Virus record (IMG/VR): IMGVR_UViG_3300031867_000003
Span: 96,001-160,000 of that record
DNA length: 64,000 bases
Direction: 5' to 3' (one strand)
From: a virus
Lineage: Duplodnaviria; Caudoviricetes
In this document: in pieces, positions 17,801-61,282 of the stretch
Layout: every line of letters begins with the position of its first letter
How positions within the stretch are numbered: position 1 is the first letter of the stretch
The notes under the pieces: model-generated
What the model was told of the DNA's origin: nothing
Database searches by the model: none
The model's input: the letters and a program-made list of their open reading frames with translations, nothing else
Program-made: the position numbers and the translations under genes

Positions 17801-18673
17801 AATTACGTACAAGTTATTGCCACCAATTCTAATACTGCCGATTGCCTTATCAACATCACTGAGTTTTGCATATGTAGAAGTAACTGTCTGTCGGAATGAA
17901 CTCGCGGTTTGCTCATTGGTAGTAACTGTATTTTTCAGAGTTTTGAATTCTTCGCCGTCTGCTTTGGTAGATAATTCAGATGATATATCGGAAACTGTCG
18001 AAGTAATCCCTGTAATATCCTATTCGGTTTGACTTACGCGACTTCTTATGTCGGCGCCGGTTGTACTGTCATATGCATTAATAGAAGAGCTAATATCGTC
18101 CTACCAGATTTTTTGCGTTATCTTTTTATTAATTTCGTCGGCAAGATTTATTAGTCCACTAATTGTAGAGCGGTGAACAGCGTCGGAATAAACCACGCTA
18201 CCGTCGCTCATCGTAAGTTCAACTCGCCCCCACAGATATTTATTCTCCGGGATTTCGTCAGGCTCCTCATATGACCATGAACCGCCGGTTACACTCGTTG
18301 AAGAGGTAGACACATACCATTGTTCCCGTTCGCGAGAAACAGTTGCGCCAGGGTCACCTTGGGTACCGTCCATACCCGATCTACTCACGTTATAAACAAT
18401 TGTAAATTGCCCATCGCTGTATATGGTGCGAGTTCTCGTCCACAACCATTCGCCCTCGGCAATAGTCGGTAATTCAGCGCTCCAACTACCCTGGGTGAGT
18501 ACCACGCCGTTTATGTCGGTAATAATATTGCCGTCTCCGTCCTTAAGCGGTGTTCCAGGTACAACCGTACCACTTGCGGATGTAGCATACTCAATTATTG
18601 AATCGACTACCGAATTCCCATCTTGTACATCAACCACAGACGTGGAACTCATTGCCAGTATTTTTGACATCAT
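11813..18673 (-). CDS. Large tail fibre / adhesin-like protein (about 2286 aa, TAG=Gln)
   Basis: Eight track ORFs share one frame and are separated by TAG at the joints checked; GTWGISITGNAATAT-type repeats; internal duplicated module. Confidence 0.8.
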
Positions 18674-34800: not shown

Positions 34801-37800
34801 AATTTTTCATTTCTTCTGCTGTAAGTTTACCGTTTTCACGGTAAGACTCTAGTGCATTATTCAGTGATGATAAATTAGATTCATACTGTGATGCACTTTT
34901 GGAAAAATCTTCGTCATTGAGAATATCCGCAAGAGTACCGGTTCCGGCTTCTTCTTTAATCTAGGATAACTGGTTCAAATATTCTCTGAGGGATTCAATT
35001 GTATTGCCAACAAAATTAAAGTTTTGATTGTTCATCGCTGTCTGGGCAATTCTTTGTTCTTTTTGCGTTAAACTCTGTATGTCATCCCAAGATATCTTGC
35101 TTTTGCCTTGTTTATAGACATTTTTACCATTAGCATCTTGAGTTACCTCGCCTCCAAGTCTTTTGAATATGGCAGCTCGAGTGTCAGTAGCGTTCCAGTG
35201 GTAATCACCATTTTCATCCTCATATTTGTATTCAAGACCAACAAGAATTGTTTGCTTTATTTTATAATTTTCAGTTCCTTCGCCACCTGGGAAAATCGTA
35301 TTTAACACACCATTAATCTGATCTCTCATTTCTTTATTGGTGGCGTCATCAAATTCAAAATTAAAAATTTTAGATAAAGCTTCTTTTGATACGTCTCCGT
35401 TGCTAACAGCTTGTTCTATCGGCGCAAGTATTCTATTTTTAATATCATCATCAAAACTTTCGCTATTAGAACCTAACTGTTCATATAATGTATCATAATC
35501 GATATTATATAACTAAGATAAAATACTATCCGTTAAATCTTCGCCGAGATGTAAAAAGTTAGGATCTGTCTTTAAAGTCGAAATTAAATTAGGAACAAAT
35601 CCAGTCGCCCAATTTGCCGACTTCTAAACATTGGCAGACTTTATAGTATCTTGTGCTCTTTCTATATAACCATTAAGAATGTTCTGGTACCCGTCCATAG
35701 AACTAGATAACTAGTTTAAATCGTCCTATGTTAACTTAAATGTTATTTTTTCACCCTAATCTCCGTGGCTATAATAACCATAATCTACCCCAAGACTGCT
35801 CAGTACATTTTCTAGCGCGGATCTGGCCCCGGAACTTGTAGGAGCATCCCACACTTTTGACCCAGTAGAATTTATCTCTGCAATCTTATTCTGTATTTCT
35901 TGTACCTATGATATCTGTTTTTCCGCACCGGCAATTTCGTCGTCATAGTTTTTGTTTCCTTCAACGATTCCTTTAACTATACCAGGCATTTGTTTTTCAA
36001 TTTCATTTGCTTTTATTTTATTCTGTGCTTCAATTAATTCATTTAATTTATCTGTTGCCTATTGAGCATTTTCCCCTAAGTCAACCAAAGACTATCCGCT
36101 ATCTGTTACTCCTGTTTTTAAGGATGGAAATGTATCCGCGAGCTATTGATTGATTGCCAAAAACTCCTCATAATCTTCTGTTGAGAGTGAGAGATTTTTA
36201 ATTTGATTTCCTCTCATATAAACACCGGAACGAAGTTCATTATAACGTTTTCTAGCGTTTTCGCCAACTTCATTAACAGCGGTCATTTCTTCTCTTGCTT
36301 TTCTAGCTTCTCCCTATGCCGCTAATCCTTTATTTATTTTGTTTTCTCTATAATGTGCTAGATAATTAATCCCTTCGATCCCTTTACCAATCGCAGCCGT
36401 AATAGCCATAGAAATTGCACCTGTTGCAAGACCGGAGATAGCAGTTAAACCAACGTCTTTAATGAATGAGGTAGCTATACCCTTAAATGTTGCTTTCTCA
36501 TTAAGTGCCTTTTTAAAATCATCAACAAGCATACCTTTGCCGCCACGTTCTGCAATGCCGGCGATTATGTCTTGCGCTTCATCCTTAGCATTTGATAAAC
36601 CGGTCTGCCTAACATCTCTTACTCCATCCCAGCCAAAAAGCTATCCGACGGTAGTAGCATTTCTATTTCCAGCTATTCTTTTATTAAGCCATTCAATTGC
36701 ATCTTCCTTTGGTTGCGTGTTAAATAATGCGTTCTTAAGACTTTTAAAAAATCCCCCATTAGTAGAATCAAATCTAGTTTTCATATCCTTAAAGATATGT
36801 CCAAATTCCCAATCCCCCATACCGTTTTTACGGAATAATCCGTTTCCGGTAAACTGAAGAAATCCGCCGATTCCGGCTCCAAGAATTCCACTAAGGCCGC
36901 CGAATGCGTCTACTAACTACGTAACTACTTCAACGGCAGAAGTGCCGAGTTCAATGATATCTTTAAGCCATTCACTGTCAATTGTTACTGTTGCCAGTTG
37001 TTGTAAACTATTTTGAAGCTGTGCCATTTTTCCTTCTACAGAATCAAGATATGTGTTAAGCTCGTTTTGTGCCGATCCTTGTGAGTTCATTAAAGAGTCT
37101 TGATAGACATCTTTTAATAGCTGTGGATTTGATAATAGGCTACTTGCTGCTGCTGCACGCGTTTTTCCTCAATTATGTTAAACATGGTTCACAACACCAT
37201 GTGATTCGTAATAAACGAATCTCTTACACTTTCATGCAAGTTCTGACCATTTCTTCACCCTCAGCATCATCTGTTAGGGGCATACCTTTTCGGCGTACCA
37301 TAAGTTTGTACCCTACGATTATTCATAATCTGGTCGATGAACGTTCGCCAATATATATATCCAAAATATACATACAGGCGCTTCGATGCAAGAACAGCCA
37401 ATCTTTATGTTATAAAACCATCATAATATATTTTCATTATTATTGTGGTATAAAGCTCTAAGGCATTACCTGCAATTAGATATGTTCTTTATATATATTT
37501 CTATATATTGTGGCAAGCCGTTTGCCACCGTTTCAAGTAATAGCGACTATCTATTAGTGCCCAGTTTCTTATCTTCCTCACCAATTTCCTTAAATACCTC
37601 AGCGATACCGAGCATACGTTCGTATGTTGTTTTGTAAGTACCGTCGTCATTCAGTATATCAAAACCTTTATATCCGTTTGATTGCACCTTTGTTGCGTCA
37701 AGAATCGTTTGTCGCAGTTTCGATTGTGTAGTAATTAAACCATCGATTTCTTCGCCGGCTTCTTGCATGTCTTCTACGGAAGTGCCGCTCAATCTCAGTG

Positions 37801-40800
37801 AGATTGTCTTAAGGGATTGGCCAACCGTGAGAGGATCTTGAAGGACGGCATTTGCAGCAGTAGTAAGAGCCACAGCTTCGTCAAATGAATCCGATCATGT
37901 TAAAGATAGTTCGCAACGCTATCTTAATTTATTGATAAACAATTATCAATCTTTATCTATCAATAAATTCTTTACCTTTCGGCAAAGTCCCGACTATTTC
38001 TTCACCCTCACCATTACGTGGAGGGGCATACCTTTTCCAATTCCATTTGCGATTGAATTGTACAATTAGTCTGTGAACGTTTATCTTCAATTAAAAAGAT
38101 ACTTCGCTGCGCGATCTACCAATTCTTATTTTTTAAGACTATCATAAACAATTGCTTGCTTATTGTAGTAATAAGACTCTAAGGTTTTACCCGCAATTAG
38201 ATATGTTCTTATAATATATTTCTATATTATCGGGCAATTGTTTTTACCCGTTACTTGTAATGTACCAGCAGATTTCTGAAGTGACTCAGCTAACTCTGAC
38301 GTACTGATTGCGTAGTTATTGCCTACGTAGTTTAACTTATCGATGATTTCCGATTTATCAAGATCTTTATACGCTTGGCTCATTGCAGTTAATGATTCAG
38401 TTGCAGCATTAATGTCTTGGAATTCCGACACATTAAGAAGTACAGTTGACAATTCCGCACTTTTTTGTGCCTACTCAAACGACTCGCCCAGTCTTAACCA
38501 ATCCGCAGTACTTTCTTGAATTTGTTTAGACGTTGTCCCGACGCGATCGGCAGCCTCAAAGCTTCCGTGTTGTGCAAAATCTTTAAGAACACTAAGTGGC
38601 TCGTCAGACACTTTTCGCATTTCCGTGAGGGCAGTGTCAAGTTCTCTGACGATATTTACTCCTTGCTTGGCAATATTGATTACTTCATACAAATCCGCGT
38701 ATGTAAGTAAATATCTCGCCATTCCCTTGAACGAACCTTTAAGAGTCTCACCAAATGATTTGCCGACATCTCCGGCTTCCGTAGCCTAGGTTTTTATCCG
38801 CTCAAATGCTGCGGCGATTTCATCAAGATTACCGGCGGACGCACCATTTATTGCGTCTTGAAGGTTTTGAATTTGTGGGAAGTATTCAGTGGCAGCGGAA
38901 TTTTTATACATCCACTCTGACATACGGCGATTGAGAGTAGCAGCATCTTTTTCGTCGGCGGGAGAGTAATACCCTCCACTAGATCGTTGAACTACGTCAT
39001 TCAATCTGCCTCTAAAAGATAATACCTAAGCCTAAATCTAGTCACGTCTATCGGGGGTGGCTTTTTCATATTCCCCAGATATTTTAACCAAATTTTCAAA
39101 CTCTTCGTTTAAATCATGCAGAACGTTTACTCCATCTTCATTCCAGTTTCCATTGCCTAATTTTTGAAGAACTTCACCCATTTCCTCAAGGCTGTCGGTA
39201 AATGCAGACGTCTGCGCCTCATTCATAGTGTCATCAAATTGTTGTCTTAATTGTTTTAACGCATCCGATGCCTCACCTTGTGCGGTGACGAAAAGTCCAG
39301 TTTTATTTATCGCATTTTCATAAAAAGTTCCATATCTGTTTAAAAACGCCTATTCAGAATAATCCAACATCTATCCGTTTCTCTGCTTTTCATTAATTTG
39401 CGCATAACGCTCTGCATACTTAATAAGTGTTTGATATCCACGCTCAACATTTTCAAATTCATAATTCTCATTATCATTAAATGCGGACATCCCTGATTTT
39501 AAAACGTCCACATCTGCCATTTTTTGTCTATAAGTATCAAGAGCCGCATTAGGAACAGTCCCATCGTTTCTCTAATTCAATTTGTCAAGCGATTCATATG
39601 CTTTTTCTGCTTCCTCGCGATACTTTTCCATTGTTTTTATCGCCTGTTGTAGCTAATTGGCGCTTATCTCTCCAAGATTAAACATATCCTATGCATTAGA
39701 GGCTCGCTTTGCGGCATCATAGTATTGCTATATTTTACCGGCCTATTCACCGACATATTTAGATTCAGTAGCCTCCCATTCCTTTGCCAATCTGGCATCA
39801 TGTGAGGCAATAGCTCTATCTAAATCATCTCTGGATTTATAAGAACCATCTTTCGAAGTTACCCATTTGTCTAAAGCAGAGTCTGTCTATTCCTATGTAA
39901 TTTTCGATGCTTCCTTAAATTCATATATTTTTTCTATCGCTTCGTCCGCAGCTTCTGCTGTATCTTCCATCATTCTGACAATAGAACTTTTTACATTGTC
40001 CGGAATCACTTGCCCTTTTGCCTCATCTGTCAACATTTTATTATACGTATCTCTAGCTTCAATTGCCCTTTTTATTATATTAATTTGCTCTTCATATTCA
40101 TCCTTATTCTTTTTATTCACTGCAGCTGTTTTTTTATCCTAGGATTGTGCGGAGCCATTTTGAGCAGCTTCCCACGCTTTTATCCCTTCTTGATATTGCT
40201 CATCTGTAATATCATCTTTTATAGCCTCTAATTCACGCTTCGCGTCAGCAGCTTCTTGATATGCTTTTGTTAATCTAGAAACGGCCTCAGCCCATTCTTG
40301 TGTTTGTTTAATTTCAGGATTAGACTCGGCTTTTGCCTCTAGCTCATTCATTTTAGTTCTAGCGTTAAATAATTCTTTAAATTTATCAGTTTGTTCTTTA
40401 TAAAAATCACTAATCGTTTTATTTCGTTTTTTATTATCATCAGCTTGTGCCTTACCCTATGCCTCATAACGCTTACGCCCCATATTATATTCAGTGTTAC
40501 GCGCTTTTTGATATTGCTATTCTTCCATAGCGATTGCCATAGCATCTGATTTTTGACCTTCATATTCAGCATTTACATCCTTAAAACGTTGTTGAATAGA
40601 TCTTAATTTATTATTAAATTCCTCTAGGTCTTTGGATTTAAGATTGGAGCCGATATTTTTTTCAAGATCACTCAATTCTTTTTCTAAATCTGAGGTATCT
40701 ACATTAGACTTCTACATCTTACGCATGGTATTATGTATATCAGTAGTTAATTTATCTTTGGCAGCTGTTATGCTATATGGATTAAACTGAGTGTTTGCCT

Positions 40801-43800
40801 TTTGATTTTTTATAGCCTACTGCGCCGTTATTTTATATTCATTAATCGCAGCCCCTAGCTGTTCCTTTACTGTTTTCGGCATTTCTTGCCCAGCGTATTT
40901 ATCAAAGAAATCTTCGAATATTTTATTATACAAATTAGTAAGCTTTGTATCGTCCTCACTTGAAAAAGTTACTCCCGCATTATCTATATATTTCGCTTTT
41001 ATATTTTTAAGATTGCCCTTTTGCCTAGCAATAAGAGCATCGGTATTTTCAATGGATTTATTTCGCTTTTCGTTTTGTCTAAATTCTATTTCTTCATTTC
41101 TCTATTGTAACTTCGCCTAAACAATATCCGCAGACTCCTTTGCCCTTCTCTCGAAATCTTTTTTCTAATCTTGTCCAGGTTTATTATCAGCGCTATCGTA
41201 ATATCCATATAATTCATCGGTCATTCTCTGAAGCATATCATAGTATAATCCAAGTTCGTTTTGCATTGCGTCGGTGTTTTTACCTTGTTTTTCGGCATTT
41301 TTAATATTATTATCCAGCGTAAGCACTTTGTTTTGCATGCTTATTACTTGTTTTTCAAGGCTTTCATAAGTATTGTCTGTTTTAACCGATTCAAACTCAT
41401 TACCATCCTCATCGCGTATAATTCTAGTGGTTGCCTTTTCTCCATAGCCTAATCGCATAGTATAGGACGTTCTTTCGCCGTTTACTTTTGTTTCCCCAAT
41501 ATACGTACCTTTTCGATTATCAGAAGTATCACCTTGCTGAGTTACCTCAGATATAGCATCTGAATTTCTCTCAGCAGCTTTACCTTCATTATCAAGGCCT
41601 TTTGTCGCTTTCTTTGTGGCGTCAGCCGTCTTTTCACCAGATTCAGCAACTTTTCGGTTAGCCTCTTCAAATTTCTTCTTTTTTATCTCCGAAACCTCGG
41701 CAGCGTCACCCTCATTTTTTATTTCCTTAGTGGCGTCCCGAAGCGGTTTAGCTCCATCAGTTGTGTTTTTCGTAATTTTTACCGAAGACTCAGATAATAA
41801 TTCATTTAAATGTTGTTGATCATCAACTGATTTTTTAATATAACTTAGAAAATCATCTTTGCTAGATGGTGGATTAGATAAATATTCGTAAAGCTATGAC
41901 AATGCACCCTATGTATTAGTAGAAGTATCAAAGATGTGTCCAAAAGACTCATTTATCTCTTCCAAAAATGATATCGCATCTGAACCTTTTTTAGTTGATA
42001 AAGTACCAATACCAATAGTTCCAAGAATGTTGTTCCAGTCATCACCAAATTCTTCTCGGTCACTTTTAGAGATTCGTATTTTATTAGATGATACAAAACT
42101 TCTAATTTGTTTCCATAAATTCATATCGCCATATGATTCAATTACTCCGCTATCCCTAGAAAGAATATCAAACAGATTATCATAAGTTGGTGTTTCACCG
42201 TTTGCGGTTTCAACCAAAAGATTTCGAACTTCATTTTTTAATTGTCCAAATATTTTAGTGGACTTCACACCGAATTCATCACGAATGGCAGACGCTACCC
42301 TAGTTGTTTCTTTTTCTAAGTTTTGTTCATCAATTATAATATCGTCTATAGGCGACTCACTGGGTATACTTTTATCCCACATATTAGATATTTCATTAAA
42401 AGTATATCCAAGTTCTTTTGCTTTAGAATTAAATTGATCTATCGCGTCTGTAAACGGAAGATTTTTTTCTGTAACCTAAAATTCCAAGTCGTCTACTATA
42501 GACTACAAACTTTTTGGAGCCAACTTGGTCATATTTTCAAATTTCTAATGCGGCAAAATATCCTCGCCATTTTGTGAAATCTTCTTCCAGGATCCAGATA
42601 TTTCATCAAAAGCATATCCAACTGACTCGGCAAATTTTCTAACGGCCTCTTCACCTTTAATAGACTCCTTGGTTATTTGATCTAAGAAAGCACCATATCC
42701 GTCCGGAAGTTCATCCTCCGCCATTCCCATAGCATCTAAAATAGGCTATGTTCCCTCTGTGAATTTCAATATTTCACCATTTACACGACCATTTCTTTCA
42801 CGTTCGGCTACAAGTTCTTCCTATCTTTGAGCTATATGAGATTTAAACTCATCCATTGCCGCATCATATTCTTTTTGCCCAGTAGCAACGTCGGCTATTA
42901 GCTGATTTACAAAATCTTGATTTGCATCAGAATATCCCTCTATGGAGCGGATATCTTTTCCAAATGTTCGACGTCTGTCGTCTGGGACGGCAACTGGTGA
43001 AACTGGAGCCCCATCAGAATCTCCAGCTTTATGATTTTCATCATCTATAGCATCGGCTGCCTCTTCAATCTTTTCTGCCGTTTCTTTCCCAGATTCAGCA
43101 ACTTTTTCTTTATTTACTTTCGCGAATTCTTCTTTATATGGGATTGCCTCTTTGGCGGACTCGCCCTCGGTTTTTATTGCGTTTGCACCTTCGCGGAGAG
43201 AAGATAAGTCAATAGAAGATATGGTAGACTGAAATGTTGTGATAGATTTATTTAACTCATCAAAATTACCGGCAATGCTTTCCCAATTAATATTTGATAA
43301 TATAGAATCGTTACCACCTAAACTAAAAGCGTTCTATATAGCCTCTCCCATTTTTTCGGCGTTCTCAGCAACTTTCTGCATTGTTTCGTTAAGTTGCTCA
43401 AGAAATGATGGCGCTTTTGCGTCTTTCGGAAGAAGCCCCTTTGACATTACATTATGCAAATTGCCTATTGCATCTGTAAATAATTGGATTTGTTGTGTGT
43501 ATTCTTTTACGGAATCGGATTGCCCAATTTCATCATCAGCTTTTATTCTGGTCTAACTCAACGTTTCAAGTAACTGGTCTTTTAACTTCTGTTTATCTTC
43601 AGGAGACTTTGTAATTTCTGCCTTTTCACGAATTCTTTTACTTATATATTTGAAATCCGTTGCCGGAAAATTTGATTCCAACATTTGATCCCAAAATGAG
43701 TTTTCCCCTTTTCCGACACTTTCAGCGGTTCTCTATATAGAAGAGATGAATGCCATTATTTGTTTAATCTGGGTCTTTGAATCTGGTAATAGTTTAATTC

Positions 43801-45619
43801 TATCTGGATTAAACTATTCAACGAATTCCTAAACATTAGGGAACGCTTCCAAAAACCCGGAACTTCTTGGTGACTATGCCATAATATTTGCTAAAAGCTA
43901 TATATCACTAACATCTCCACCAAGCATACCTTCATCTTTTAATGATAATTTATATTTGTTTACGACGTCTAATATATTTTTATATGCTGCCTAATATCTT
44001 TCAGCCTAATTTAACCATTCTGTTTCTATATTTGCCTCAATTGCTGCGTCCGCTACATCGTCTTTAACATGCACATTAAACTATTGTTCTTTTCTTGATG
44101 TGGCTCTCGAAAAATCCCACATTTCTCTATTAAGTTGCAATAATGATTTCTGATTATTTCTAGCTTTTTGGTTAGTACCTTCTCCAAATCTACCTATAGC
44201 ATCAGATACCTAATTAACCACAGATAACAAAGACTAAAACTAACTAATTAACGGTTCTATTCCAGCGTCTGTATCTATTTGACCAAATGCAGAACTAATA
44301 TTTGTTATTTCCGTATTTAAATTTTCTAGTGTATTAATCAACTATTGAATATTTTCCGTATTCCAAGACGTAGAATCACCACTTGTAGCATGAATTTCTG
44401 AAGACATTTTTTCTTTTTTTTTATTAATATTTTCTATATGTTCCTCGGTATCATTTAAAGCCTATTCCGTTTCATCTATATTTGGCATTTTTATTTTTGA
44501 AAAATCAAAATCATTAATAGCCTATTTAATATCATTAAGTGCATTTTTAAGTTCATTTAATGCGTTTGTTGCGGAAGTTATTTGTCCCTCATCAATTTTA
44601 AATGTTAGTCCATTACCATCTTCTCCGAGAGCATCTAGGGACTACGAGACTTTATCTATAATATTTTGAAATTTCTAAAACGTTCCGTCATCTTGAAATG
44701 CTTTCTTAATTTTGCCAATAGAATCGGCTACGCCGGATTCGGTCTCATCTTCAACTCTATCAGCCATCTGTTTGGATGCCTCTAACTCCCTCTCAAGTTC
44801 TGCTCGCTGCTATTTTAATGACTTAACCTAGGACTTATTTATTTCATCTGGATTTCTTCCAAGATTCTATAAATTTTTATTTCTAACATCAACCAGTCTA
44901 GCCTATATGTCTTTATAGTTTTCAAACACGCCGGAATCTTTAATTATTCTGTTATCGGGGTTTAGAGCAGTTCTTAATTTTTTAGTAATATCAAATATTA
45001 TTTGAGAAAAATCTTTATCGTCAAACCCTATTAACTAACTCAAGTCTCCGCCTTGACCCAAATATTTAAATAAATTATCAATATAACCACGCAAATCACT
45101 TGCATTTTCCTTAGAAAATAGCCCGTCCAATTGAACATTTGATGTAGCAAGCTATTGTATCTTTCTATATCCTTGACTATTAGAATCAAGTAAATCTCTT
45201 TGTATTTTCCTAAAATTATTTTTTGCCTAGTTAGCATTTTTAATTTGTTGATTTATGTTATCAATATCAAAACCGATTACTTCCTCTGGTCTAACAGTTG
45301 TTTTTCCGGCTATCTGATTAACGGTTCTTCCAACATTTTCTAAATTGCTCTATACTTCTCGAAGAGAATTGCTAAGTTCGTCCATCCCTGCAACATTTAA
45401 ACCAAATAAATCTTCGCCGTTCTATCCTTTATACATCTTTGTTACATTTTTAATCGCGGATTCAATGTCCTTAATTGAGTCTAATATTTTTGATGTATCT
45501 ATATCTGCATTAAATTTAATTGGTTTTTTAGCTCTTCTTTCCAATTCGTCTATTTTTTTAGTGCCACTATCATCAACTTCAACTTTCAACGGCACAATCA
45601 CGGTTTCAGTTTCTTTCAT
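25807..45619 (-). CDS. Giant tape measure protein, about 6153 aa after splicing. Exons 45619-38246, 37891-37524, 37169-30285, 29962-27119, 26797-25807
   Basis: The tape-measure fragments of the ORF track fall in frames consistent with this exon structure; TMP core motifs (ELDTALTEMRKV, IIDKLNYVGNNYAIST, GQSLKTISLRL); dense in-frame TAG; exon sum 18462 nt is divisible by 3. Confidence 0.85.
26798..27118 (-). ncRNA. Group I intron D in the tape measure gene (321 nt, ORF-less)
   Basis: P1 GCCU/AA..UUGGGC with U.G pair; core AAUUGCUGGGAAA, AAUCAGCAGC, GUUCAACGACUA, GAUAUAGUCU; terminal G; splicing restores ALNGL-TDAESRAQKARLE. Confidence 0.88.
29963..30284 (-). ncRNA. Group I intron C in the tape measure gene (322 nt, ORF-less)
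   Basis: P1 GUCGU/AU..AUGCGAC; full core motifs; terminal G; splicing restores LKRGDVV-FNHKQTEDLL and explains the frame change. Confidence 0.9.
37170..37523 (-). ncRNA. Group I intron B in the tape measure gene (354 nt, ORF-less, C-G at the 5' splice site)
   Basis: P1 GUGGC/AA..UUGCCAC; core AAUUGCAGGUAA, GUUCAUCGACCA, AAAUGGUCAG; splicing restores LLETVA-GKTRAAAASSLL. Confidence 0.82.
37892..38245 (-). ncRNA. Group I intron A in the tape measure gene (354 nt, ORF-less)
   Basis: P1 CGGGU/AA..UUGCCCG; core AAUUGCGGGUAA, GUUCACAGACUA, AAAUAGUCGG; splicing restores LQVTG-DSFDEAVALTTAAN. Confidence 0.88.
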
Positions 45620-48222: not shown

Positions 48223-48438
48223 TCAAACGGTCATAGAAAGCATTATATTGGCAATATCTCGCACACAATCTTTGCGACCAATATCTTTAACTATAGCTAT
48301 GGCTAAATATGTTTCCCAATAATCAACAAAATGTTCGTCATCTTCAGTAACATCATCGCATCCCCAACGTCGCACTACTTCATTAAACTTTTCACAAAAT
48401 TCCAATATATTTTTACATTCTTCCATAAACCGCCTCAT
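48223..48438 (-). CDS. Hypothetical protein
   Basis: ORF overlapping the recombinase stop (ATGA). Confidence 0.5.
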   Translation of the reverse strand: MRRFMEECKNILEFCEKFNEVVRRWGCDDVTEDDEHFVDYWETYLAIAIVKDIGRKDCVRDIANIMLSMTV

Positions 48439-49439
48439 TGTATTCCAAACATCTCATTTATTTTATCTTCGGTTTCATCCTTAAAATAGCCGGAAGTGGT
48501 AGTCAAATCAGAATGATGAGCAAATGCCTGGATTTGATCTAACTCAAATACCTTATTATTGCCATTTTCATCTTTAAGCCGGTCATCCCAACCTTTTTTC
48601 AACGCTTGGAGTCGGGAATGGCGACAACTATGAGGAAAAATATTTACTTCCTCTCCGCGAACTTCAGATAATATTTTACTAATACTAACAATCCTGTCAT
48701 AAAGAGCTCCACAGTCAACTTCAGAAGCCGTTTCCCCATGTCCCTTAATCCACAAGGAATCTATTCCGTCATCTCCGCGCCATTCCAAATATTGCCTAAT
48801 TAATTCCCTGGTGTCATTTAAATAAATAAGAGGAAACTGCTTTCCTCGCTTTCCTCTGACTATATTGGTTTTATTGCCTTCAAGAAGACCGTCTTTTTTA
48901 ACTTGATAAACCTCATTGCGTCTCGCTCCAGAATCATACATCAATGACCACAACACAGCATCTTGCAGTCTACCACGTTCAAGAAGAATATCTCGTGTTT
49001 TTACAAACTCTTCATATGTAAAGAAGAAATCATCATCATTGGTTTTGACCTTTTCATTCGGAACTCCGCGAACCTTTTTACTATAATTGATTTCATAATC
49101 ATAATCGTCATCTTCTTCGCAAAAAGTCAACATTGAGTTAATAGAAGAGTGGAGACGATTGCATCTTGCCGGCGACATTCCGGAATCGTCAAACCATATA
49201 TTTAAACGTCTAAAATCTTTCTTTGTCATCTCAAGCACTGATTTATTATCAAAGTCCTCTAATATTTTAATAAATATTAATTTCAAATCATATCTGTAAG
49301 CATTAATGGTGTTAGGACTTTTTTTCTGCTGGCGAAGTTCCGTAAGGAAGTCTTCCATAATGGCTTTATTTTCTGGATTAACCTTGGCCCATTTTTCATC
49401 GGTATATATTCTATTATAAACTCCTCGGCTTCTAGCCAT
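48435..49439 (-). CDS. Tyrosine recombinase (phage integrase family) within the tail module
   Basis: DSGARRNE, GKRGK, FPHSCRHSR and AHHSDLTTTSGY motifs; no TAG. Confidence 0.9.
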   Translation of the reverse strand: MARSRGVYNRIYTDEKWAKVNPENKAIMEDFLTELRQQKKSPNTINAYRYDLKLIFIKILEDFDNKSVLEMTKKDFRRLNIWFDDSGMSPARCNRLHSSINSMLTFCEEDDDYDYEINYSKKVRGVPNEKVKTNDDDFFFTYEEFVKTRDILLERGRLQDAVLWSLMYDSGARRNEVYQVKKDGLLEGNKTNIVRGKRGKQFPLIYLNDTRELIRQYLEWRGDDGIDSLWIKGHGETASEVDCGALYDRIVSISKILSEVRGEEVNIFPHSCRHSRLQALKKGWDDRLKDENGNNKVFELDQIQAFAHHSDLTTTSGYFKDETEDKINEMFGIQ

Positions 49440-50621
49440 TTAATTATCACCTCCATAATTAGAATACATAATTACATTCCTACCATATTTAATTTCTGTA
49501 CTGTATTCTAATTCTCCATTTTTTAATACTAAATCCCAGTCAATATTATTTTTCCTAAACTGTTCAATCTTAATTCTTAGGTCAATACTAGGATTATCAA
49601 GAATCTAATCCACATTGTTTTTTGTCAAATCACAAGGAAACAGAATATAATATATTAGTCCTCCACTACTTAATAAATGTTCTTTATATTTCAATTTCAA
49701 TCTATACTTTTCTCTAGAATCGCTTTTATCAATAGGTTTATCCATATAATAATAATCTTTATATGCTTCTATTATTCCGGGAATTTCAATATAAATCGTT
49801 TTCCCATGATATTTAATAACATAATCACAATTCATATTCCCGCTATAGCTATCTATAAAATCAGAATATTTTACATCTCTAAAGTAATCTATTCCAAAAA
49901 CTAATCCGCGAGACCTTAAGTACATAGATAATAAATATTCAAACTAACTTGTAGTTATCTCTCCATCATCAAACGAATATAATGTCCCTCTCCCTGCTAT
50001 TCCAATTTCAAATCCATTATTTTTAATATATTCACCAAGTGTCTGATTATAATATTTTCTGCATGAATTTTGTAAACATGCTATAGACGGAATGTTATCC
50101 AAAGAAGAAATAAATTTATCCGTAATATAAGGAATATTTTTCTACATAGCAACACTAAAAACATACTACATCGCTTTATTAAAACCTTCTATGTCCAAAG
50201 CCTTGGACATCATATCTTCTTGTATGATTTCCAATCCAATTTCTTCCTTCATTTTATTAAGAGAACCCCATACTTTATTTATATATCTTATTGATGGGAC
50301 TAATGCCCCTAGATCCCTAAAGTCATCATAATACAAAGGTCTGCCTAATTCTTTTCTGTATTTTTTTATTCTTTCAATTGCTTCCTCTTTTGGCATTTTC
50401 ATTGTAAACAATCCAGACCAATTTACAAAATCAGACCAACTTTTTACATTTGAATCCGGGCAATGCTTTACGAACCATCTAGCATCAGGCAAATCATAAA
50501 ATCTAAGTTTAGCATGTGAGATGTGTCTACGATTATTAATACTTTTTAATATAAAATCGTTCACATATAAATCATATTTGTTTAAATCAAATTTACGTGG
50601 AGACATTTTTTTCTTTTCCAT
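49440..50621 (-). CDS. Free-standing putative homing endonuclease, repeat domains + PD-(D/E)XK-like C-terminus (393 aa, TAG=Gln)
   Basis: ORFs 50166..50642 and 49605..49925 share a frame joined by TAGs; ELGRPLYYDDF...VWGSLNKMKEEIGL repeat-type motif; NCDYVI...IYIEIPG nuclease-like motif; TAA abuts the recombinase ATG. Confidence 0.7.
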
Positions 50622-50649
50622 ATTTATCATTCCTTTCAACAATGATTAT

Positions 50650-50727
50650 CCTTTCACAAATAAAAGCGCAGAAGAGCAGTGAAAGGTTCTGCTCCCACTA
50701 GGTTAATTACTCCTAATGTTTCTGCGC
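50650..50727 (-). promoter_or_regulatory. Structured leader RNA (three-way junction with anti-RBS loop)
   Basis: Outer stem GCGCAGAA/UUCUGCGC, hairpin UAGG-AGUAAUUAA-CCUA, hairpin GAGCAG-AACCUUUCA-CUGCUC; loop is complementary to downstream UGAAAGG. Confidence 0.65.
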
Positions 50728-50758
50728 AGATAATAAAAAATACCTATGACAGTATTAT

Positions 50759-50830
50759 TTATTCAGTGGGAAGAATCTGTTTGATTAATTCCGGCGTTGT
50801 TATATTGTTATATACTGTTTTACGTCCTAT
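50759..50830 (-). pseudogene. Stranded N-terminal remnant of a tyrosine recombinase
   Basis: RBS GAAGGGAG then (ATA)GRKTVYNNITTPELIKQILPTE*, similar to MARSRGVYNRIYTDEKWAKVNPEN of 48435..49439. Confidence 0.6.
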
Positions 50831-51008
50831 AACAGATCACTCCCTTCTCATAAAATTTAACTTTCATCAACCAAATAATATTCTATGGTTAATGGTATTA
50901 CCACAAATTCCGTATTAGTTTGGAAATCTTCCATATAATGCGTTTTGCGCCGCCCAGTGGCCACCAGTGCGTTTGCTAGTGGCCACCCGGCGTTGCCAGT
51001 GGCCGGGG

Positions 51009-51755
51009 TTAATCAGCCACTTTTCGTTCAATCATAACGATGTAGTGTTTCGTCACCCGCTTGAGCAACGAGTTGGATGATACCTCATCCTCCATCAGCA
51101 TGGAGGGCCATGCCTTTGGCTCGCGCTGCGAGCAGATAATACAGCTCCTTGACAATTCATTCCGTTTTTCCAGGATGTCATACAGAGCCTTGACTTCATC
51201 ATCCTCTGTGATTGGGTGCAGAAGAAAGTCGTCCAGGATCACAAGATCAAGGTTAATGATCGCCTTTACCTTCTTCTGATACTGCTTGAATTCGATTTTT
51301 CTGGCCGCGGCAAGCTCACTTACGAGTTCATCGCAATGATAGTAACCTACACGATATTCCCGGCATGCTTCGGCACCAAGCGCTCTCGCAAGATAGGTCT
51401 TTCCGCTATCAGAAGCCCCGAAGATACAAAGGTTCATGCCTTCCCGTACAAAATCCAACGACGAAAGCGTATGGACGATATCCAACGGTTGGTACTGGCG
51501 CTCTTTGGAATCAACACACTGGTCAAGACAGCTGTCACTTCCTTTCAGTTTTGCCTTCTTCAGACGCGATGTATAGCGGTTTGTAATCGTTACGATATAT
51601 TCGGCGTGAATGATAGTACTGATCAACTCCAGACGTCCTGTATTAACAAAGGCCGGCTGCTTATAAAGTGTTTCAAGCTCTGCGGCCATATGCGGCAGTT
51701 TCAGTTCATCCAGCTCCTCCAGGATTGACTTCAGCTCCTTTGCTCCTGTATTCAT
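51009..51755 (-). CDS. istB: IS21 helper ATPase IstB
   Basis: Walker A GASDSGKT, Walker B LVILDDF; overlaps the istA stop. Confidence 0.93.
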   Translation of the reverse strand: MNTGAKELKSILEELDELKLPHMAAELETLYKQPAFVNTGRLELISTIIHAEYIVTITNRYTSRLKKAKLKGSDSCLDQCVDSKERQYQPLDIVHTLSSLDFVREGMNLCIFGASDSGKTYLARALGAEACREYRVGYYHCDELVSELAAARKIEFKQYQKKVKAIINLDLVILDDFLLHPITEDDEVKALYDILEKRNELSRSCIICSQREPKAWPSMLMEDEVSSNSLLKRVTKHYIVMIERKVAD

Positions 51756-53368
51756 TGCTGCGCCTCCTTTCCGGACTGATCCGCGAGGGTACGGCTGCGA
51801 TTCAGCAGTTTTTCCATGTCGGAGTAACTGCTGTCCATGATGTAGGAGCCTTCGTTCCGCTTTTTATTCTTATCGGTGTTGTAACCTTCAGAGCCAAGTT
51901 CTTCGGCTACCGCGCCAATGGTGGTTTTGATATAGGTGTAGGTCGTCCTCTCAGCAGCGAGAGCGCGCCTGCAACATTCCTCCAGGGCAGAGCGGCTGTA
52001 CTTCTTTGTGAAGCCAAGAACGCCCACACAGAGCCTGTAGGTCTGAACTTCCAGCTTCCGGCTCTTCAGGATCCGCTTAATTACTTCCGTAGTGTTGCTG
52101 CCAACTGTGGATGCTTTCCGGATAAAGTAGGTGCTGTTCCATTCCGAAAAATCCTCGTAGTTTTTCGGCAGACGGCTGGAGTCTGTTTTCCATTCGCCTC
52201 TGTAGGTTGCCCGTGGCCATTCGATAATCAGTTCGCCTTCGAGACTGAAGATCTTGACAACGGAGGCAGTTGCACGAATGATGACTTTTTTGTGCAGATA
52301 CGCTTTGTCTACGCTATAATAAGCATTGTCAAAGCGGATGTGGAAGTCGCTTGACACCTTTGCCGTGGCCCTCTCCATGTAATGGTACTGCGTGGAGGGG
52401 AGCGGCATCAGCTCTTCCTTTTCTTCTGCCCAATAGTAGGAGCGGCAATGCTCCTTCTTCTTAAACGGAGCGTCATTCAGCTCATCCAGCTTCTCCCAGA
52501 GGTCTTCATTGAACTGCTCAAGCGAGAAATATCTGCGTTCTTCCAGTTCATGGAAGAACCCTTTCTCGAGAATGCCAACCGCGTTTTCCACAGAAGATTT
52601 GAAACGGGGTTTCCGGACCTTGGCGGGAAGAATCACGGTGTGGTTGTGCTCCGCCCATTCTGCGTAGTCCTGATTCAGTTCCGGCTGTATCCAGTCCTTG
52701 TTTGCGATCACGGCCTGTTTGCAGTTATCGCAAACGACGATAGCGGGAACGCCGCCAAAAGCCTTCAACGCGTTGTTATTGACCTCGATCCACTGCATCT
52801 CCTTTGTGGATTCCATACCCTCAGCGTAGATGTACTGGGAATACGGAAGGATAGCAACAAATACGACGATCGGTGTGATCTCGCCGGTAAGACGGTTGAT
52901 CAGATCAAATGTCTTGCCTGCAAAGTCGACTTCCATCGTCTGGGCGATCACGGCTGTAAAGTGTGCTGTTTCGTAGTTTTCCTCGCACCACTTGCCGAAG
53001 AGCTCACAGAACTGCCGGTACTGGTATGGTTTCTTCTCCTCGGCATTGCAGCGCTTGACATACCGGTCCCAGCACACCTGAAGCGTCATGTTCTTTCTTT
53101 CGTTCATGAGCTTCAGAACCTTCGGGTAGTCGGGGTACTCGTAGCTTTCATCTCGACCGCCTTCGCCCGGCACTTTGCCATACACCTTCATGGCAATTCC
53201 GGCGTTTGTGATCCCGGGCGGGAGTGGGAAGTCCAGATCTTCGCACTTTTCGAATGCGTGGATAAACTTCTGTATCCCGGATTTGCTCATACCGGTTTGC
53301 CGGCTGATTTCTCTCACCGACAACTTGATCACGAAGTATTTGTTGAGAATGTCTCTGTAGTCTAGCAT
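51752..53368 (-). CDS. istA: IS21 transposase IstA
   Basis: N-terminal HTH, MEVDFAG, VCDNCK, PRFKSSVENAV (DDE), FDNAYYSV. Confidence 0.95.
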   Translation of the reverse strand: MLDYRDILNKYFVIKLSVREISRQTGMSKSGIQKFIHAFEKCEDLDFPLPPGITNAGIAMKVYGKVPGEGGRDESYEYPDYPKVLKLMNERKNMTLQVCWDRYVKRCNAEEKKPYQYRQFCELFGKWCEENYETAHFTAVIAQTMEVDFAGKTFDLINRLTGEITPIVVFVAILPYSQYIYAEGMESTKEMQWIEVNNNALKAFGGVPAIVVCDNCKQAVIANKDWIQPELNQDYAEWAEHNHTVILPAKVRKPRFKSSVENAVGILEKGFFHELEERRYFSLEQFNEDLWEKLDELNDAPFKKKEHCRSYYWAEEKEELMPLPSTQYHYMERATAKVSSDFHIRFDNAYYSVDKAYLHKKVIIRATASVVKIFSLEGELIIEWPRATYRGEWKTDSSRLPKNYEDFSEWNSTYFIRKASTVGSNTTEVIKRILKSRKLEVQTYRLCVGVLGFTKKYSRSALEECCRRALAAERTTYTYIKTTIGAVAEELGSEGYNTDKNKKRNEGSYIMDSSYSDMEKLLNRSRTLADQSGKEAQQ

Positions 53369-53703
53369 AGGCTACCTCCTAATAAGAATCTCCATCGCTA
53401 TAGGTGGGCGTTCTCATTATAGGAGATAACGGTATTCAAAACTCAATAAACCCGGCCACTCGCTCCGCTCCGTGGCCACTTACGGCCGCATAAGCGGCCA
53501 CTGGGATCCGCCGTATGCAATATAATTCATAAGCACTATATCTGCGATATCTTTATCATATGTTTTAGTAGCCAATTCAATATTAGTTACAATTTCCCAT
53601 TTATGGTCATGTAATGAACGTAGATATACAGTTTTTCCTTCTGCATCAATGGAGGCTATTACATATTTATTTATAGTTTTTTCCAATTGCTTTCTCATAA
53701 TAT

Positions 53704-54837
53704 TTATTTCCTTTTAATTCCTTTATTATTTATTAGTTTTAAATTATCAATAACATAGTCAATGTCTGATTGTGTCGTTTCATAATCTAGTGAAAATCGA
53801 ATAGAAGCGTTTGCATCATCATCCGATAAACCGATCGCTTTCAGCACGTATGACGGTTCATCGGAATCTGAATTACATGCGGATCCGGTAGAAACATAAA
53901 TTCCACTCATATCTAACATTCGCAGTATCTGTTCTCCTCGACATCCCTTAAAACACACATTTAAATTTCCCGGTAATCGATTATTAAAATCTCCATTAAT
54001 AACTACGTTGTCGAATTCCTCTAAAAGCTTATTAGCAAAATAATTCCTTAAATAAAGAATGTTTGCCGTATCTTTTGAATTATTTAAATTCACAATTATA
54101 TCAGCAATGCAACCAAAACCAACAATTGCCGGCACATTTTCAGTGCCAGAACGCTTGCCAAATTCTTGTCCTCCACCATAAATAAGTGGTGATATATCTA
54201 TCCCGTTTTTCACATATAGGAATCCTATTCCTTTCGGACCATGAACTTTATGAGCACTTACACTCATCATGTCAATATTAAGTTTATTTACATCAATGGG
54301 AATATGACCATATGCCTGAACCGCGTCGGTGTGGAAGATTATATTATTTTGATGAGCAATTTCTCCAATTTCTCTTATTGGCTGAATAGTACCGATTTCA
54401 TTATTGGCACTCATTATAGATATTAGTTTTGTGTTAGGAGTTATGGCATTTTCTACATCTTTAGGATTGACTATTCCACCATTATCAACCCCTATATATG
54501 TTACGTTAACACCTTTTTTCTCAAGTGCCCAGCACTTATTTAAAATAGCATGATGCTCTATTACACTAGTTATTAAATGATCGCCAGGTTCGAGAATACT
54601 CAATGCCCAGTTATCACTTTCTGTACCCCCGAACGTAAAATATATTTCTTCGGGAAAACAACTAATTGTTTTTGATAAATTCTCCCTAGAAACATTTACA
54701 AGTTCTTTAGCTGCATTTCCGACCATATGAGTAGAAGAGGGATTACCATAATATCTAGAATATACACTGTACATTTCCTCTATTACTCCTTGATATGGTT
54801 TTGTTGTAGCCGCGTTATCTAAATATACTTCTCGCAT
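53704..54837 (-). CDS. iscS: Cysteine desulfurase (IscS/NifS family, PLP-dependent)
   Basis: YLDNAATT, GNPSS, HTDAVQ, SAHKVHGPKGIG, RSGTENV and STGSAC motifs; AAGGAG RBS before MREVY. Confidence 0.92.
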   Translation of the reverse strand: MREVYLDNAATTKPYQGVIEEMYSVYSRYYGNPSSTHMVGNAAKELVNVSRENLSKTISCFPEEIYFTFGGTESDNWALSILEPGDHLITSVIEHHAILNKCWALEKKGVNVTYIGVDNGGIVNPKDVENAITPNTKLISIMSANNEIGTIQPIREIGEIAHQNNIIFHTDAVQAYGHIPIDVNKLNIDMMSVSAHKVHGPKGIGFLYVKNGIDISPLIYGGGQEFGKRSGTENVPAIVGFGCIADIIVNLNNSKDTANILYLRNYFANKLLEEFDNVVINGDFNNRLPGNLNVCFKGCRGEQILRMLDMSGIYVSTGSACNSDSDEPSYVLKAIGLSDDDANASIRFSLDYETTQSDIDYVIDNLKLINNKGIKRK

Positions 54838-54847
54838 AGTATTCTCC

Positions 54848-55084
54848 TTACGTAAGTTCATGCTTACACCATAAATCAAAATATTTCTTGCTCTGCTCCC
54901 GATTAAAAATAAAACATAATATCGGGTCTCCTGTGTTAAAATCCACGCTTATATACAAATCAAGAAGTTCACATCCATGTTTTAAATATAAAGTGGCTTG
55001 TCTTACATTAACTATGCGGACGCCGTCCTATGGATAATAATCTTTTCCCGTTATATCTGAATGAATATCATTAATGTCTCTCAT
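54848..55084 (-). CDS. Hypothetical protein (78 aa, one TAG)
   Basis: AAAGG RBS; MRDINDIHSDITGKDYYP*DGVRIVN...FDLWCKHELT; missed by the ORF track. Confidence 0.7.
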
Positions 55085-58545: not shown

Positions 58546-61282
58546 TTACAACGCAATGATTTCAATTGGCAACGAAGCAATTATATCTTCGCCGTCAACT
58601 TTATATGTTACAGTAAGTATTTTGCCGATATACGAATCGTCTCCCAAGAACTTAACCTTAACATGATTATCTATTACAGATAACGTCAGCAATTCTTGTG
58701 GAACAGAATTCCCGTCTATAGAAAATTCCCAAGTACCGGGAAGTGTATCTATCGACGTACCGTCTTCGTCGGCAAATACCACGGTGAATGTTTTGGCAGA
58801 GCCGCCTATACGAATCTGCTGTTTACCTGAGCATGTAATTGTAGTAGTGGTAGTGGGAGTTGGGATAATATCATCTACCGGAACAGCCGGAGTAGGTTCT
58901 ACTTCACTAGCTTTCCAATCCGCCCACCAAGCAACTACATTGCCATCAACATCATAATCAGCTTTAAGTGTATGTTGATTAGCAAGATCTTGCGCACAAG
59001 TAAAAATCGCAATTCCTTTAGAATTTGAACGATTTATTTTACTAATCTAAAATACGCGAGGTTCTGTTAATACGTTGGCATCTATCACCAAGTAAGTGTT
59101 ATAATATAAATGTTCCGTATCACGATTTAACGGAAGACAGAACTAGGTCTAGTCTTCTGGTTGCTAAAATTTATACATATACGTTACTTTATCAAGTCGT
59201 TAATTTGATAAAGAATTATTTAATTCATTTAAAAAAGCCAAATACTTAGAATGTTTTCTTTCTAAATATCTATTCGCATCATAGTATAACCAATCCATGA
59301 TTTTTATTACATTCTTTTTGCTTAATGTTTGAAGAACGGATGTAATATCATTTTCCTCTGGATGAGCGAGTTGAAGACTTAAATTTACACCTAATTTATT
59401 TTGAAATATTTTATTAACACTATTACAAAAATCAAATGTAGATATTATCTTAAATCCACACCTTAAAAGCCCATTATCTTGAAACGTATAAAAACTTCCG
59501 TCCCCGTCAAAATAACCCCTTATAAAATGTGAATGTAAAAAATCTGGAATGTCTGGGAACGTCAACATCAAACTTTTGTTTTGAACCATTCCTTGCTCTA
59601 CTAAAGAATTTGATAAATGTTTACTTGATAGTTCTAAGCATATCTATGGTTTAACATTATCAGCTTTTATTAATCTATCTCCAATATACGAATCTCTTTT
59701 AATAATTTGTCGCAGTGGTCTATTAGATCCTATATCTTCACTAAATTTTTCTATTATTTCACGATCATCAATTTGTAAGTCTAAATGTATCGCATTCCTA
59801 GGAACATTATTACAACCATCCGCATACAATAATCCCAAGTAATATGCCTTATCTTGGGTATCTATTATATCAAAATACTCTTCATTTAATGAATATTTTC
59901 TACGACCAGGATTCTTTATTCCTAGATTAATAAATAATTCAGATATAAATCTCTAGCTAACATTATTTTCTTCAGATAATTTTTTAATAGATTTCCCAGA
60001 CTTATATTCATCGATATGGTTATCAATATTCTCCAAAAACAATTTTCTATTGTATTTTGCATCTTTATTATACATATAATTAATCCTCCTTCAAAAGATA
60101 TAATGTATGCTATAATAAAAACAGTAATTTTTATGTTGAAGGCATAAAAAAACGGTTTGCAACCCGCTGTCCTGTTTTTATTCAAAATGATTAAATAATT
60201 TTTCTTATACTTTCATATAAGATCGGACTATATCTTTAACCGCAATTGCGGTTACTTCCCACTGGACTTACTTGAGCCACTTAGTCTCTGAACTTTACCC
60301 TCATCAAGTCTTAGCTGCTGATTATCCAATATAATATATTTTTTGACTATCACGCTTAGATGTATCTCATTATTACGTTGTAGTTATACTATCTCTAAGG
60401 AAGTTCCAGCAATTCAAGAAGTTTTCATCGTATTATTACTAATACGTGCGACTATTTCTAATCGAGCCATAATCCACTCATTATGTTATCATAAGGCTTT
60501 TTATCCTTATCTCTTACTGTCGCCAGTAAGATCAGCATATGTTTTCTCCATATCATTAACTTGACTTAGGAGTCGGACACTCGTGGGAATATTATATTTA
60601 TTCAATTCCTATGCGTTACAATACTTCGCAGCCTTTCGCTATCTGCGAAGTTATCTCGGCGTTGTCTACGAGAGAGTTCCACCGATTTTGCCCGATTTTC
60701 ACTCATAAGTTTCCTTATAAGGCAACAATTTTTATTGTAAGAATTTTGGCTCCTGCTGACCCCAGGGAACTCATAATATTTCCCATCTTTAATCCAGCGG
60801 AACACTTCGTCACAACGAAGTACTTCCCAAGTCGGAAACATATTTTCATCCCGGTCAGCTGTAGCAACCACTAACCATCTACGGTATATGTCATCTTCTC
60901 CCTTTAGCCAAACATAAAGACCAACTGGATATCTAGCTCTATACCGCTTACCAAACACTTCTTCGTAATAATCAACACCGCACTCATGACCTGGTCTAAA
61001 CTAAATATGCATAGTCTATTCATCTTTTTGAAATGTCTTAGAACTATGTGCAATAAATTTCACATCTATAGGGGTTGGATTTGTATCCTCTTCCGGGTTA
61101 AATCCTTCAAGACGAAGTCTATTCTGCGGCGCGGTATGGTAGTAATCGAAGAAATATCCAACCTAATACTAAACATCCTATGCAAACGTAGCATCCATGA
61201 TTACATCACTTTGCTACTTCCTCGCCCTCCCCGGTACACTAATATTATTGTGCATTGCCTAAAAATCTCTGTAGGTAATCAT
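58546..61282 (-). CDS. Putative head-closure/neck protein (398 aa after splicing; exons 61282-60734, 60478-60461, 59175-58546)
   Basis: Spliced GVSRSQNSYN-SGLWLD-YKF*QPED*T*FCLPLNRDTE; many TAGs; exon lengths 549+18+630. Confidence 0.78.
59200..60075 (-). CDS. Intron-encoded double-motif LAGLIDADG homing endonuclease (291 aa, two TAG=Gln)
   Basis: KAYYLGLLYADG and FIRGYFDGDG motifs in one frame; AAGGAGG RBS. Confidence 0.88.
60085..60182 (-). promoter_or_regulatory. Structured leader RNA (three-way junction with anti-RBS loop) before the LAGLIDADG ORF
   Basis: Outer stem AAUAAAAACAG/CUGUUUUUAUU, hairpin GCGG-GUUGCAAA-CCGU, hairpin UUUUUAUG-CCUUCAA-CAUAAAAA; loop is complementary to UUGAAGG of the RBS. 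Confidence 0.65.
60479..60733 (-). ncRNA. Compact group I intron (255 nt, ORF-less, different subtype)
   Basis: P1 CAAU/AA-AAA-UUGUUG; core AAAUCGGUGGAA, AACGCCGAG, GUAACGCAUA, CAUAUGCUG; terminal G before SGLWLD. Confidence 0.82.

Follow-up and report, generated by a model that had tools for sequence, protein, structure and literature searches.

Three-way-junction leader RNAs, candidate Shine-Dalgarno locks, precede mobile nuclease-type genes in an uncultured phage

Two RNA leaders encoded in a 64,000-nucleotide stretch of an uncultured phage genome (the window; positions 96,001 to 160,000 of virus record IMGVR_UViG_3300031867_000003) are, on comparative sequence evidence, real, conserved and strand-specific structures. 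Each is a three-way junction in which the loop of the second hairpin is complementary to the Shine-Dalgarno (SD) region of the gene downstream. One leader, E1, is free-standing and precedes a gene of 393 codons; the other, E2, lies inside a group I intron, 5' of a LAGLIDADG endonuclease gene. Their most likely function is that of cis-acting SD locks that would repress translation, a reading that is probably correct because the loop pairs with the SD and because T4 endonuclease leaders provide a precedent (PMC2988022).

The complete virus record is a contig of 202 kb. The genes of the window are on the minus strand, as are the leaders and the intron described below. Open reading frames of more than 2,000 residues containing 22-57 in-frame TAG codons (for example 11813-18673, 30236-37090 and 38126-45619) are open only when TAG is read as glutamine, indicating that TAG is recoded in this phage. 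Five group I introns in the window are at or above the Rfam gathering threshold (Rfam 15), and no other Rfam family reaches threshold there. The protein homologues fall in Lachnospiraceae, Eubacterium and Clostridium, which makes a host from the Clostridia probable. The neighbouring genes of relatives include the SPbeta-type structural Pfam families YomW, YomV and YonB. An identification as a crAss-like phage, which had rested on a 48-nt match, was dropped in view of these SPbeta-type neighbours and the homologues in Clostridia.

RNAfold folded positions 50727-50650 into a three-way junction (-27.1 kcal/mol, z -4.0). The E1 junction (50666-50729) scored 91.9 bits with the covariance model of its class, R2, and its helices covary in alignment A8. 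The closing stem, GCGCAGA/UCUGCGC, pairs 50727-50721 with 50672-50666. Hairpin 1 (50718-50696) has the loop AGUAAUUAA, the core of which, UAAUUA (50704-50709), is self-complementary and flanked by AG and A. Hairpin 2 (50695-50673) presents the anti-SD loop AACCUUUCA (50680-50688), which includes CCUUUCA. A U-rich tail, UUUUAUUU (50658-50665), follows directly 3' of the closing stem. Two target sites for the anti-SD loop lie downstream. Site 1, GUGAAAGG (50650-50657), is an upstream 'parking' copy that includes UGAAAGG at 50656-50650, and site 2, UGAAAGG at 50632-50638, overlaps the SD of the ATG at 50621. The sequence-only reading had described the loops of both leaders as complementary to the SD; the complementarity is present in both and is kept by covariation, but the E1 site that was named, 50656-50650, is not the SD, which is at 50638-50632. 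Site 2 is located in the loop of a small hairpin (AUCAU/AUGAU), so the E1 pairing would be a loop-loop kiss.

Immediately 5' of E1, at 50730-50780, there is a weak hairpin with a T run, and clearer terminator-like hairpins are found in the same place in two related loci, L009 and L010. E1 may start directly after the terminator of the preceding transcription unit, leaving no space for a conventional promoter. A consensus scan detected no sigma-70-like promoter at E1. In three unrelated phage contigs, the E1-type scaffold is preceded by about 45 nt with a common core (TGTCGG, then GG, then GTGG..TG; L164:1566-1665, L165:1566-1665 on the minus strand, and L166:1401-1500).

The E2 leader has the same layout. 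RNAfold of 60182-60085 again gave a three-way junction (-17.9 kcal/mol, z -2.1), which spans 60114-60182, scored 88 bits with model R1 and is supported by covariation in alignment A7. Its closing stem pairs 60182-60172 with 60124-60114. Hairpin 1 (60168-60151) has the loop GUUGCAAA with the self-complementary core UUGCAA (60157-60162), and hairpin 2 (60150-60128) presents the anti-SD loop CCUUCAA (60136-60142). The target, UUGAAGG (60094-60088), overlaps the SD GAAGGAGG (60092-60085), which ends 9 nt 5' of the ATG at 60075. The predicted energy of the loop/target duplex is -9.1 kcal/mol. The layout that the sequence-only reading had described as common to the two elements, a closing stem with two hairpins, was reproduced by the computed fold of each.

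Relatives were sought with covariance models, as the sequence-only reading had suggested; R1 (E2 type) and R2 (E1 type) were each built from 4-5 sequences. R1 detected about 30 loci (29) with E values of 1e-8 to 1e-23, and R2 about 38, in uncultured viral contigs. Every match was located at a fixed distance, a few tens of bases, 5' of the homologous gene, and the three-way-junction fold was found in every homologue tested. Queries of the viral contigs with single proteins gave almost no matches, and alignment queries were needed to find the relatives. All three helices covary. In the E2-type alignment, 94.6% of the cells were paired, compared with 73.4% after shuffling and 38-63% when the partner was slid, and both sides had changed in 18 of the 21 pairs. 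The E1-type helices gave 94.8% paired cells against 69.8% shuffled, with both sides changed in 17 of 21 pairs. The frequent G-U pairs fit the sense-strand RNA only, which ties the structure to that strand. Conserved residues were found at the junctions, GACAG and GAUUA in the E2 type and AGAAAC and CUCUUC in the E1 type.

These substitution patterns bear on the possibility that the elements act as DNA, their inverted and direct repeats serving as binding sites for the integrase, the nuclease or a repressor. A tyrosine integrase gene always comes next after the E1-type gene, the two direct and one inverted copies of the target resemble protein-binding repeats, and the hairpin-1 core is a DNA palindrome. 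However, the three helices are nested, show compensatory changes and contain many G-U pairs, a signature of strand-specific RNA, and the purines that flank the palindrome are asymmetric. The same design also accompanies an intronic LAGLIDADG gene that has no integrase in its vicinity, and in all cases the target overlaps an SD whose spacing to the start codon is the usual one. A DNA-level role is therefore very improbable.

It had been claimed that the difference between the two copies in the window was itself covariation. When the models were cross-searched with filters off, R1 on the E1-type loci and R2 on the E2-type loci, only noise was returned. Because R1 and R2 do not detect each other's members, the leaders were treated as two classes with one architecture, and the claim was withdrawn in favour of covariation within each class. 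Common descent of the two classes is possible. Megablast and blastn searches of both elements and their surroundings against GenBank phages gave no relevant match. R1 likewise had no sense-strand match in Bacillus phage 0305phi8-36, Thrax5 or Alicyclobacillus phage KKP_3916, cultured phages with related LAGLIDADG genes. So far, the motif has been seen only in uncultured contigs.

The pairing between the hairpin-2 loop and the SD covaries as well. Across the members, the loop complements the region just 5' of the start codon and the sequences vary widely, with 11 classes of distinct loop/SD pairs in the E2 type and 10 in the E1 type. Seven of the 11 E2-type classes are CCUUCAA/UUGAAGG, CCUCCUAA/UUAGGAGG, CCUCUAA/UUAGAGG, CUCCUGA/UCAGGAG, CUCCGAA/UUCGGAG, CCCUAA/UUAGGG and CUCUCAAA/UUUGAGAG. 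The E1-type targets include UGAAAGG, UGGAGAGAA, UGGGAG, UACAGGU, GGGUAAGG, AUGAGG, GGCAUAGG and GUGUAGG. The 3' end of the target is about 6-12 nt 5' of the start codon, and the loop/SD duplexes of the window have predicted energies of -9 to -12 kcal/mol. Since the register of loop and target shifts by one column between members, the counting of pseudoknot columns on the MAFFT alignment A9 was replaced by a permutation test in which each distinct loop was represented once (11 classes in the E2 type and 10 in the E1 type). The loops were permuted 20,000 times among the downstream regions, and in neither type did any permutation attain the observed complementarity.

The genomic background of such an arrangement is low. 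In the 202-kb genome, an SD complement of at least 7 nt was found in a predicted hairpin loop at 2 of 117 SD-bearing gene starts, one of which is E2. The other, at genome position 168882, was rejected as a candidate; its hairpin is in apparent upstream coding sequence and is not the leader motif. In the E1 type, the target is present twice in tandem in 16 of the 22 distinct members, the second copy being the SD. Four E1-type scaffolds (L054, L055, L059 and L165) are exceptions in which the loop complement is absent nearby, and their target was probably lost through rearrangement. In L054, L055, L059 and L060 (near 735-805), all of them lacking a loop complement in the vicinity, the scaffold is followed by a gene with its own strong SD, and this gene is about 700 nt 5' of the homologue of the 393-aa gene. 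These four look like scaffolds orphaned by insertion or gene replacement.

The gene that follows E1 (49440-50621) encodes 393 residues when its four in-frame TAG codons are read as glutamine; the length of 158 aa given earlier was corrected accordingly, and homologues of about 390 aa at approximately 50% identity agree with the longer product. Pfam detected only a weak HNH_repeat at the N-terminal end and no nuclease domain. The HNH_repeat is a DNA-binding repeat associated with homing endonucleases. Foldseek against the PDB returned nothing at E <= 0.001 for this protein. However, an AlphaFold model (pLDDT 84.9) was compared by VIA-align, and residues 208-367 matched TnsA (Z 8.7), Vsr (Z 8.6), VRR-NUC and I-Bth0305I (Z 7.0); these Z scores are moderate. 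D266 and E279 are invariant. The modelled C-terminal domain is thus a PD-(D/E)XK fold by its structural matches and conserved acidic residues, as the sequence-only reading had proposed for this gene.

A tyrosine integrase gene (48435-49439) comes after the 393-aa gene, and it is the next gene after the E1-type nuclease gene in every locus fetched. The window contains a conserved module, 48435-50621 and 53704-54879, that comprises a class-V aminotransferase, the E1 leader, the gene for the PD-(D/E)XK-fold protein and the integrase. The aminotransferase recurs in L010 and the nuclease-integrase pair in all loci fetched. By fold, the nuclease domain is closest to TnsA, a protein of Tn7, and it may be asked whether nuclease and integrase cooperate in mobility. 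An IS21-family insertion sequence is present at 50939-53519, with an istA-like transposase gene at 51752-53368 and an IstB ATPase gene at 51009-55. Its GC content is above that of its surroundings, its termini are TGC...GCA, the motif GTGGCC(AC) is repeated in it, and its target, the 6-bp TTATAT, is duplicated. The insertion interrupts a small open reading frame of the phage, which starts at 53698, resumes at 50938 and stops near 50866.

The E1-type scaffold is not confined to one gene family. A further good R2 match was found in the same genome outside the window (contig 172185-172251, minus strand, L162), where two targets, UCGGAUG and GGAUGA, are located 5' of a 185-aa gene with only weak HTH signals and without a nuclease signature. 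In another phage, an E1-type scaffold precedes a 350-aa gene of the PHROG homing-endonuclease family phrog_655. The suggestion that the leader is portable was therefore borne out: E1-type scaffolds stand before PD-(D/E)XK-type, phrog_655 and HTH-like genes, of which the HTH-like gene is not recognizable as a nuclease. A fourth, weak R2 match (contig 164616-164682, minus strand, L163) occurs directly after a tRNA-like 3' half.

The U-rich tail is not required by the lock model and suggests a transcriptional role. Of 22 distinct E1-type members, 21 have at least 5 U among the 9 nt that follow the closing stem, as do 19 of 25 of the E2 type. The possibility was considered that the main job of the elements is transcriptional, the closing stem and U tail forming a branched intrinsic terminator or insulator and the anti-SD loop serving as a backup on transcripts that escape. 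These counts favour such a role, as does the observation that E1-type elements are often preceded by the end of a gene, by tRNA genes or by a simple hairpin of terminator-like form; the weak fourth R2 match, right after the tRNA-like 3' half, is another instance. However, a consensus terminator scan found nothing at E1 and only hairpin 1 at E2, and branched terminators are unusual. E2 is intronic and 5' of exon 2 of a virion gene, which efficient termination would abolish. Moreover, one locus (L009) is without the U tract, yet the fold and both targets are kept, and the covarying loop/SD pairing would be left unexplained. Termination as the main function is thus unlikely, and an SD lock remains the preferred reading.

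The loop of hairpin 1 has a property that SD masking does not account for. In both types it is self-complementary, usually flanked by purines, with cores such as UAAUUA, UCAUGA, UUAUGA (with G-U), UAGCUA, UUGCAA and UGGCCA, or at least AGCU, GGCC or GAUC. In many E2-type members, the palindrome is just 4 nt long (AGCU or GGCC) within a loop of 5-7 nt, and the loop AGUAGCUA is present in members of both classes. A 'GU..AA' loop had been taken as the feature common to the hairpins; the common feature proved to be the self-complementary hexamer instead. In the E1-type alignment A8, all three self-pairs of hairpin 1 are paired in 100% of cases and vary on both sides. This count is a better test than the shuffle control for the palindrome, which is weak since the closing base pairs are included. 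The halves of the palindrome have no spacer between them, so the self-pairs cannot form within one molecule, and the simplest reading of the sequences is an intermolecular kissing contact.

By sequence, the purine-flanked, self-complementary 6-nt apical loop, for example AG-UAAUUA-A, falls within the definition of the HIV-1 dimerization initiation site (DIS) type of kissing loop. The HIV-1 DIS loop has the form AG-GUGCAC-A. In contrast to the DIS (reviewed in PMC7357161), the phage loop is found in a putative mRNA leader rather than in a retroviral genome, and many of the E2-type loops keep only the 4-nt palindrome. It is conceivable, although doubtful, that the leaders are self-dimerizing mRNA switches in which hairpin 1 kisses its counterpart on a second transcript and the monomer or dimer state sets the anti-SD loop on the parking site or on the SD. 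If this were true, translation of a selfish nuclease would respond to the concentration of its own transcript, the stacked kissing helices could become a substrate for RNase III, and phages would contain a natural class of homodimeric cis-regulatory RNA.

Alternatively, a ligand or a protein, such as the nuclease itself or a phage or host factor, might bind the junction or hairpin 1 and so set the position of loop 2. The conserved junction residues in both types would be consistent with such a regulated switch, and the two alternative targets of the E1 type resemble a two-state expression platform. However, the junctions are very short (0-3 nt) and offer little space for a ligand pocket, no Rfam riboswitch model matched, and the downstream genes have no common metabolic theme. 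Furthermore, the hairpin-1 loop varies and still stays self-complementary, as expected if it acts by base pairing rather than by offering one fixed sequence to a protein. Control by a bound factor is accordingly quite improbable. The terminator or insulator and the factor-controlled switch remain partial rivals of the SD lock.

The intron that contains E2 interrupts a virion gene. An intron-less homologue of 395 aa (P0244) aligns with exon 1 over residues 3-188 and with exon 2 over residues 190-395, and a group I ribozyme core recognized by Rfam (60481-60204) is upstream of the endonuclease gene, confirming that the LAGLIDADG gene is intronic, as had been proposed. The intron spans 59176-60718, with ends that are approximate and derived from protein homology; the splice sites would thus be near 60719/60718 and 59176/59175. 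Since the Rfam core ends with P9 at 60204, E2 is located between P9 and the endonuclease reading frame. The latter (59200-60075; phrog_4645, E 1.7e-51) encodes 291 aa with two in-frame TAG codons read as glutamine.

A segment just after P9 (60190-60200) is complementary to 59224-59214 in the 3' end of the endonuclease reading frame. In most E2-type loci, the P9-proximal segment and the last codons of the reading frame contain complements of 8-16 nt, the sequences differing between loci. The predicted helix would enclose the three-way junction and the reading frame in one large loop, and the last codons of the endonuclease would then form part of an intron helix. E2 resembles the P9.1/P9.2 extensions of group I introns in that it is directly 3' of P9 and in that a long-range helix closes its region. 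Unlike those peripheral domains, however, the same architecture occurs in the E1 type with no intron nearby, and the E2 loop pairs with the SD of the reading frame and not with a loop of the ribozyme.

Neither element could be assigned to a known RNA family. Neither matched Rfam 15 at the gathering threshold, and permissive scans gave only noise. The int-alpA RNA (RF02996) had no match anywhere in the genome at E values up to 10 and none in a permissive scan of E1, and the literature searched contained no description of such a scaffold. The statement that the leaders belong to no named family therefore held in these searches.

The mechanism class itself is already known. Hairpins that sequester the ribosome-binding site (RBS) control I-TevI, I-TevII, I-TevIII, segB and mobE of Aeh1 (PMC2988022). 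In these T-even leaders, the RBS is freed by a late promoter located within the structure; for I-TevI, efficient splicing depends on the hairpin, and in I-TevI/td the endonuclease reading frame contributes its 3' end to the intron structure (PMC2988022). In silico, the phage leaders described here are similar in that a cis-acting RNA just 5' of an intronic or free-standing homing-endonuclease gene pairs with the SD, and participation of the 3' end of the endonuclease reading frame in intron structure is also predicted in the E2 type. There are also differences. In the T-even leaders, the RBS is in the stem of a simple, idiosyncratic local hairpin, whereas here one arm of a three-way junction presents the anti-SD as its loop, the SD is beyond the closing stem and the two pair at a distance. 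The T-even hairpins are individual, whereas these form covarying families of dozens, which have a second, palindromic loop and in one class also two copies of the target. The embedded late promoter is central in the T-even case; here, only a sigma-70-like match at E2 was found (60139-60112; TCAACA, a 16-nt spacer and TATTAT), which is weak and belongs to match counts not above those of shuffled sequence. Relative to Rfam and the literature searched, the new features are the architecture and its occurrence as families, together with the target duplication and the palindromic loop.

According to the lock model, the hairpin-2 loop of the three-way junction (6-10 nt) would pair with the SD region 13-45 nt downstream to form a pseudoknot. 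This pairing would hide the SD from 30S subunits, so that read-through transcripts would yield little translation of the downstream genes, which are mostly nuclease genes. A further effect of the lock in E2 would be to exclude ribosomes from the intron; since the last codons of the reading frame would form the P9-proximal helix, a ribosome on the reading frame would disturb it. In E1, the loop would have two alternative targets, the parking site corresponding to the ON state and the SD site to the OFF state. The anti-SD loop is predicted to pair better with site 1 (-12.1 kcal/mol) than with site 2 (-8.9 kcal/mol), so the default state of E1 could be ON. Repression, the two-site ON/OFF reading and the protection of splicing are what we infer from these pairings. 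The conserved three-way junction and the palindromic hairpin 1 are not explained by masking of the SD alone, nor are the two target sites and the U-rich tail of the E1 type explained by a simple repressor.

To our knowledge, control of homing-endonuclease genes by hiding the RBS is known only from a handful of idiosyncratic hairpins of the T4 family. Here, the same logic is found in conserved, portable RNA scaffolds with strong covariation in large uncultured phages of the Clostridia type, where they front several unrelated families of mobile genes within and outside introns. This suggests that selfish nucleases are kept quiet by a general design that is so far uncatalogued. The models R1 and R2 provide a searchable marker for cassettes of mobile genes. 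Furthermore, the self-complementary loop and the duplicated target could reveal a natural dimerizing or two-state RNA switch, and in the intronic class, the combination of anti-SD lock, helix with the 3' end of the reading frame and splicing bears on the idea that ribosomes must stay out of introns.
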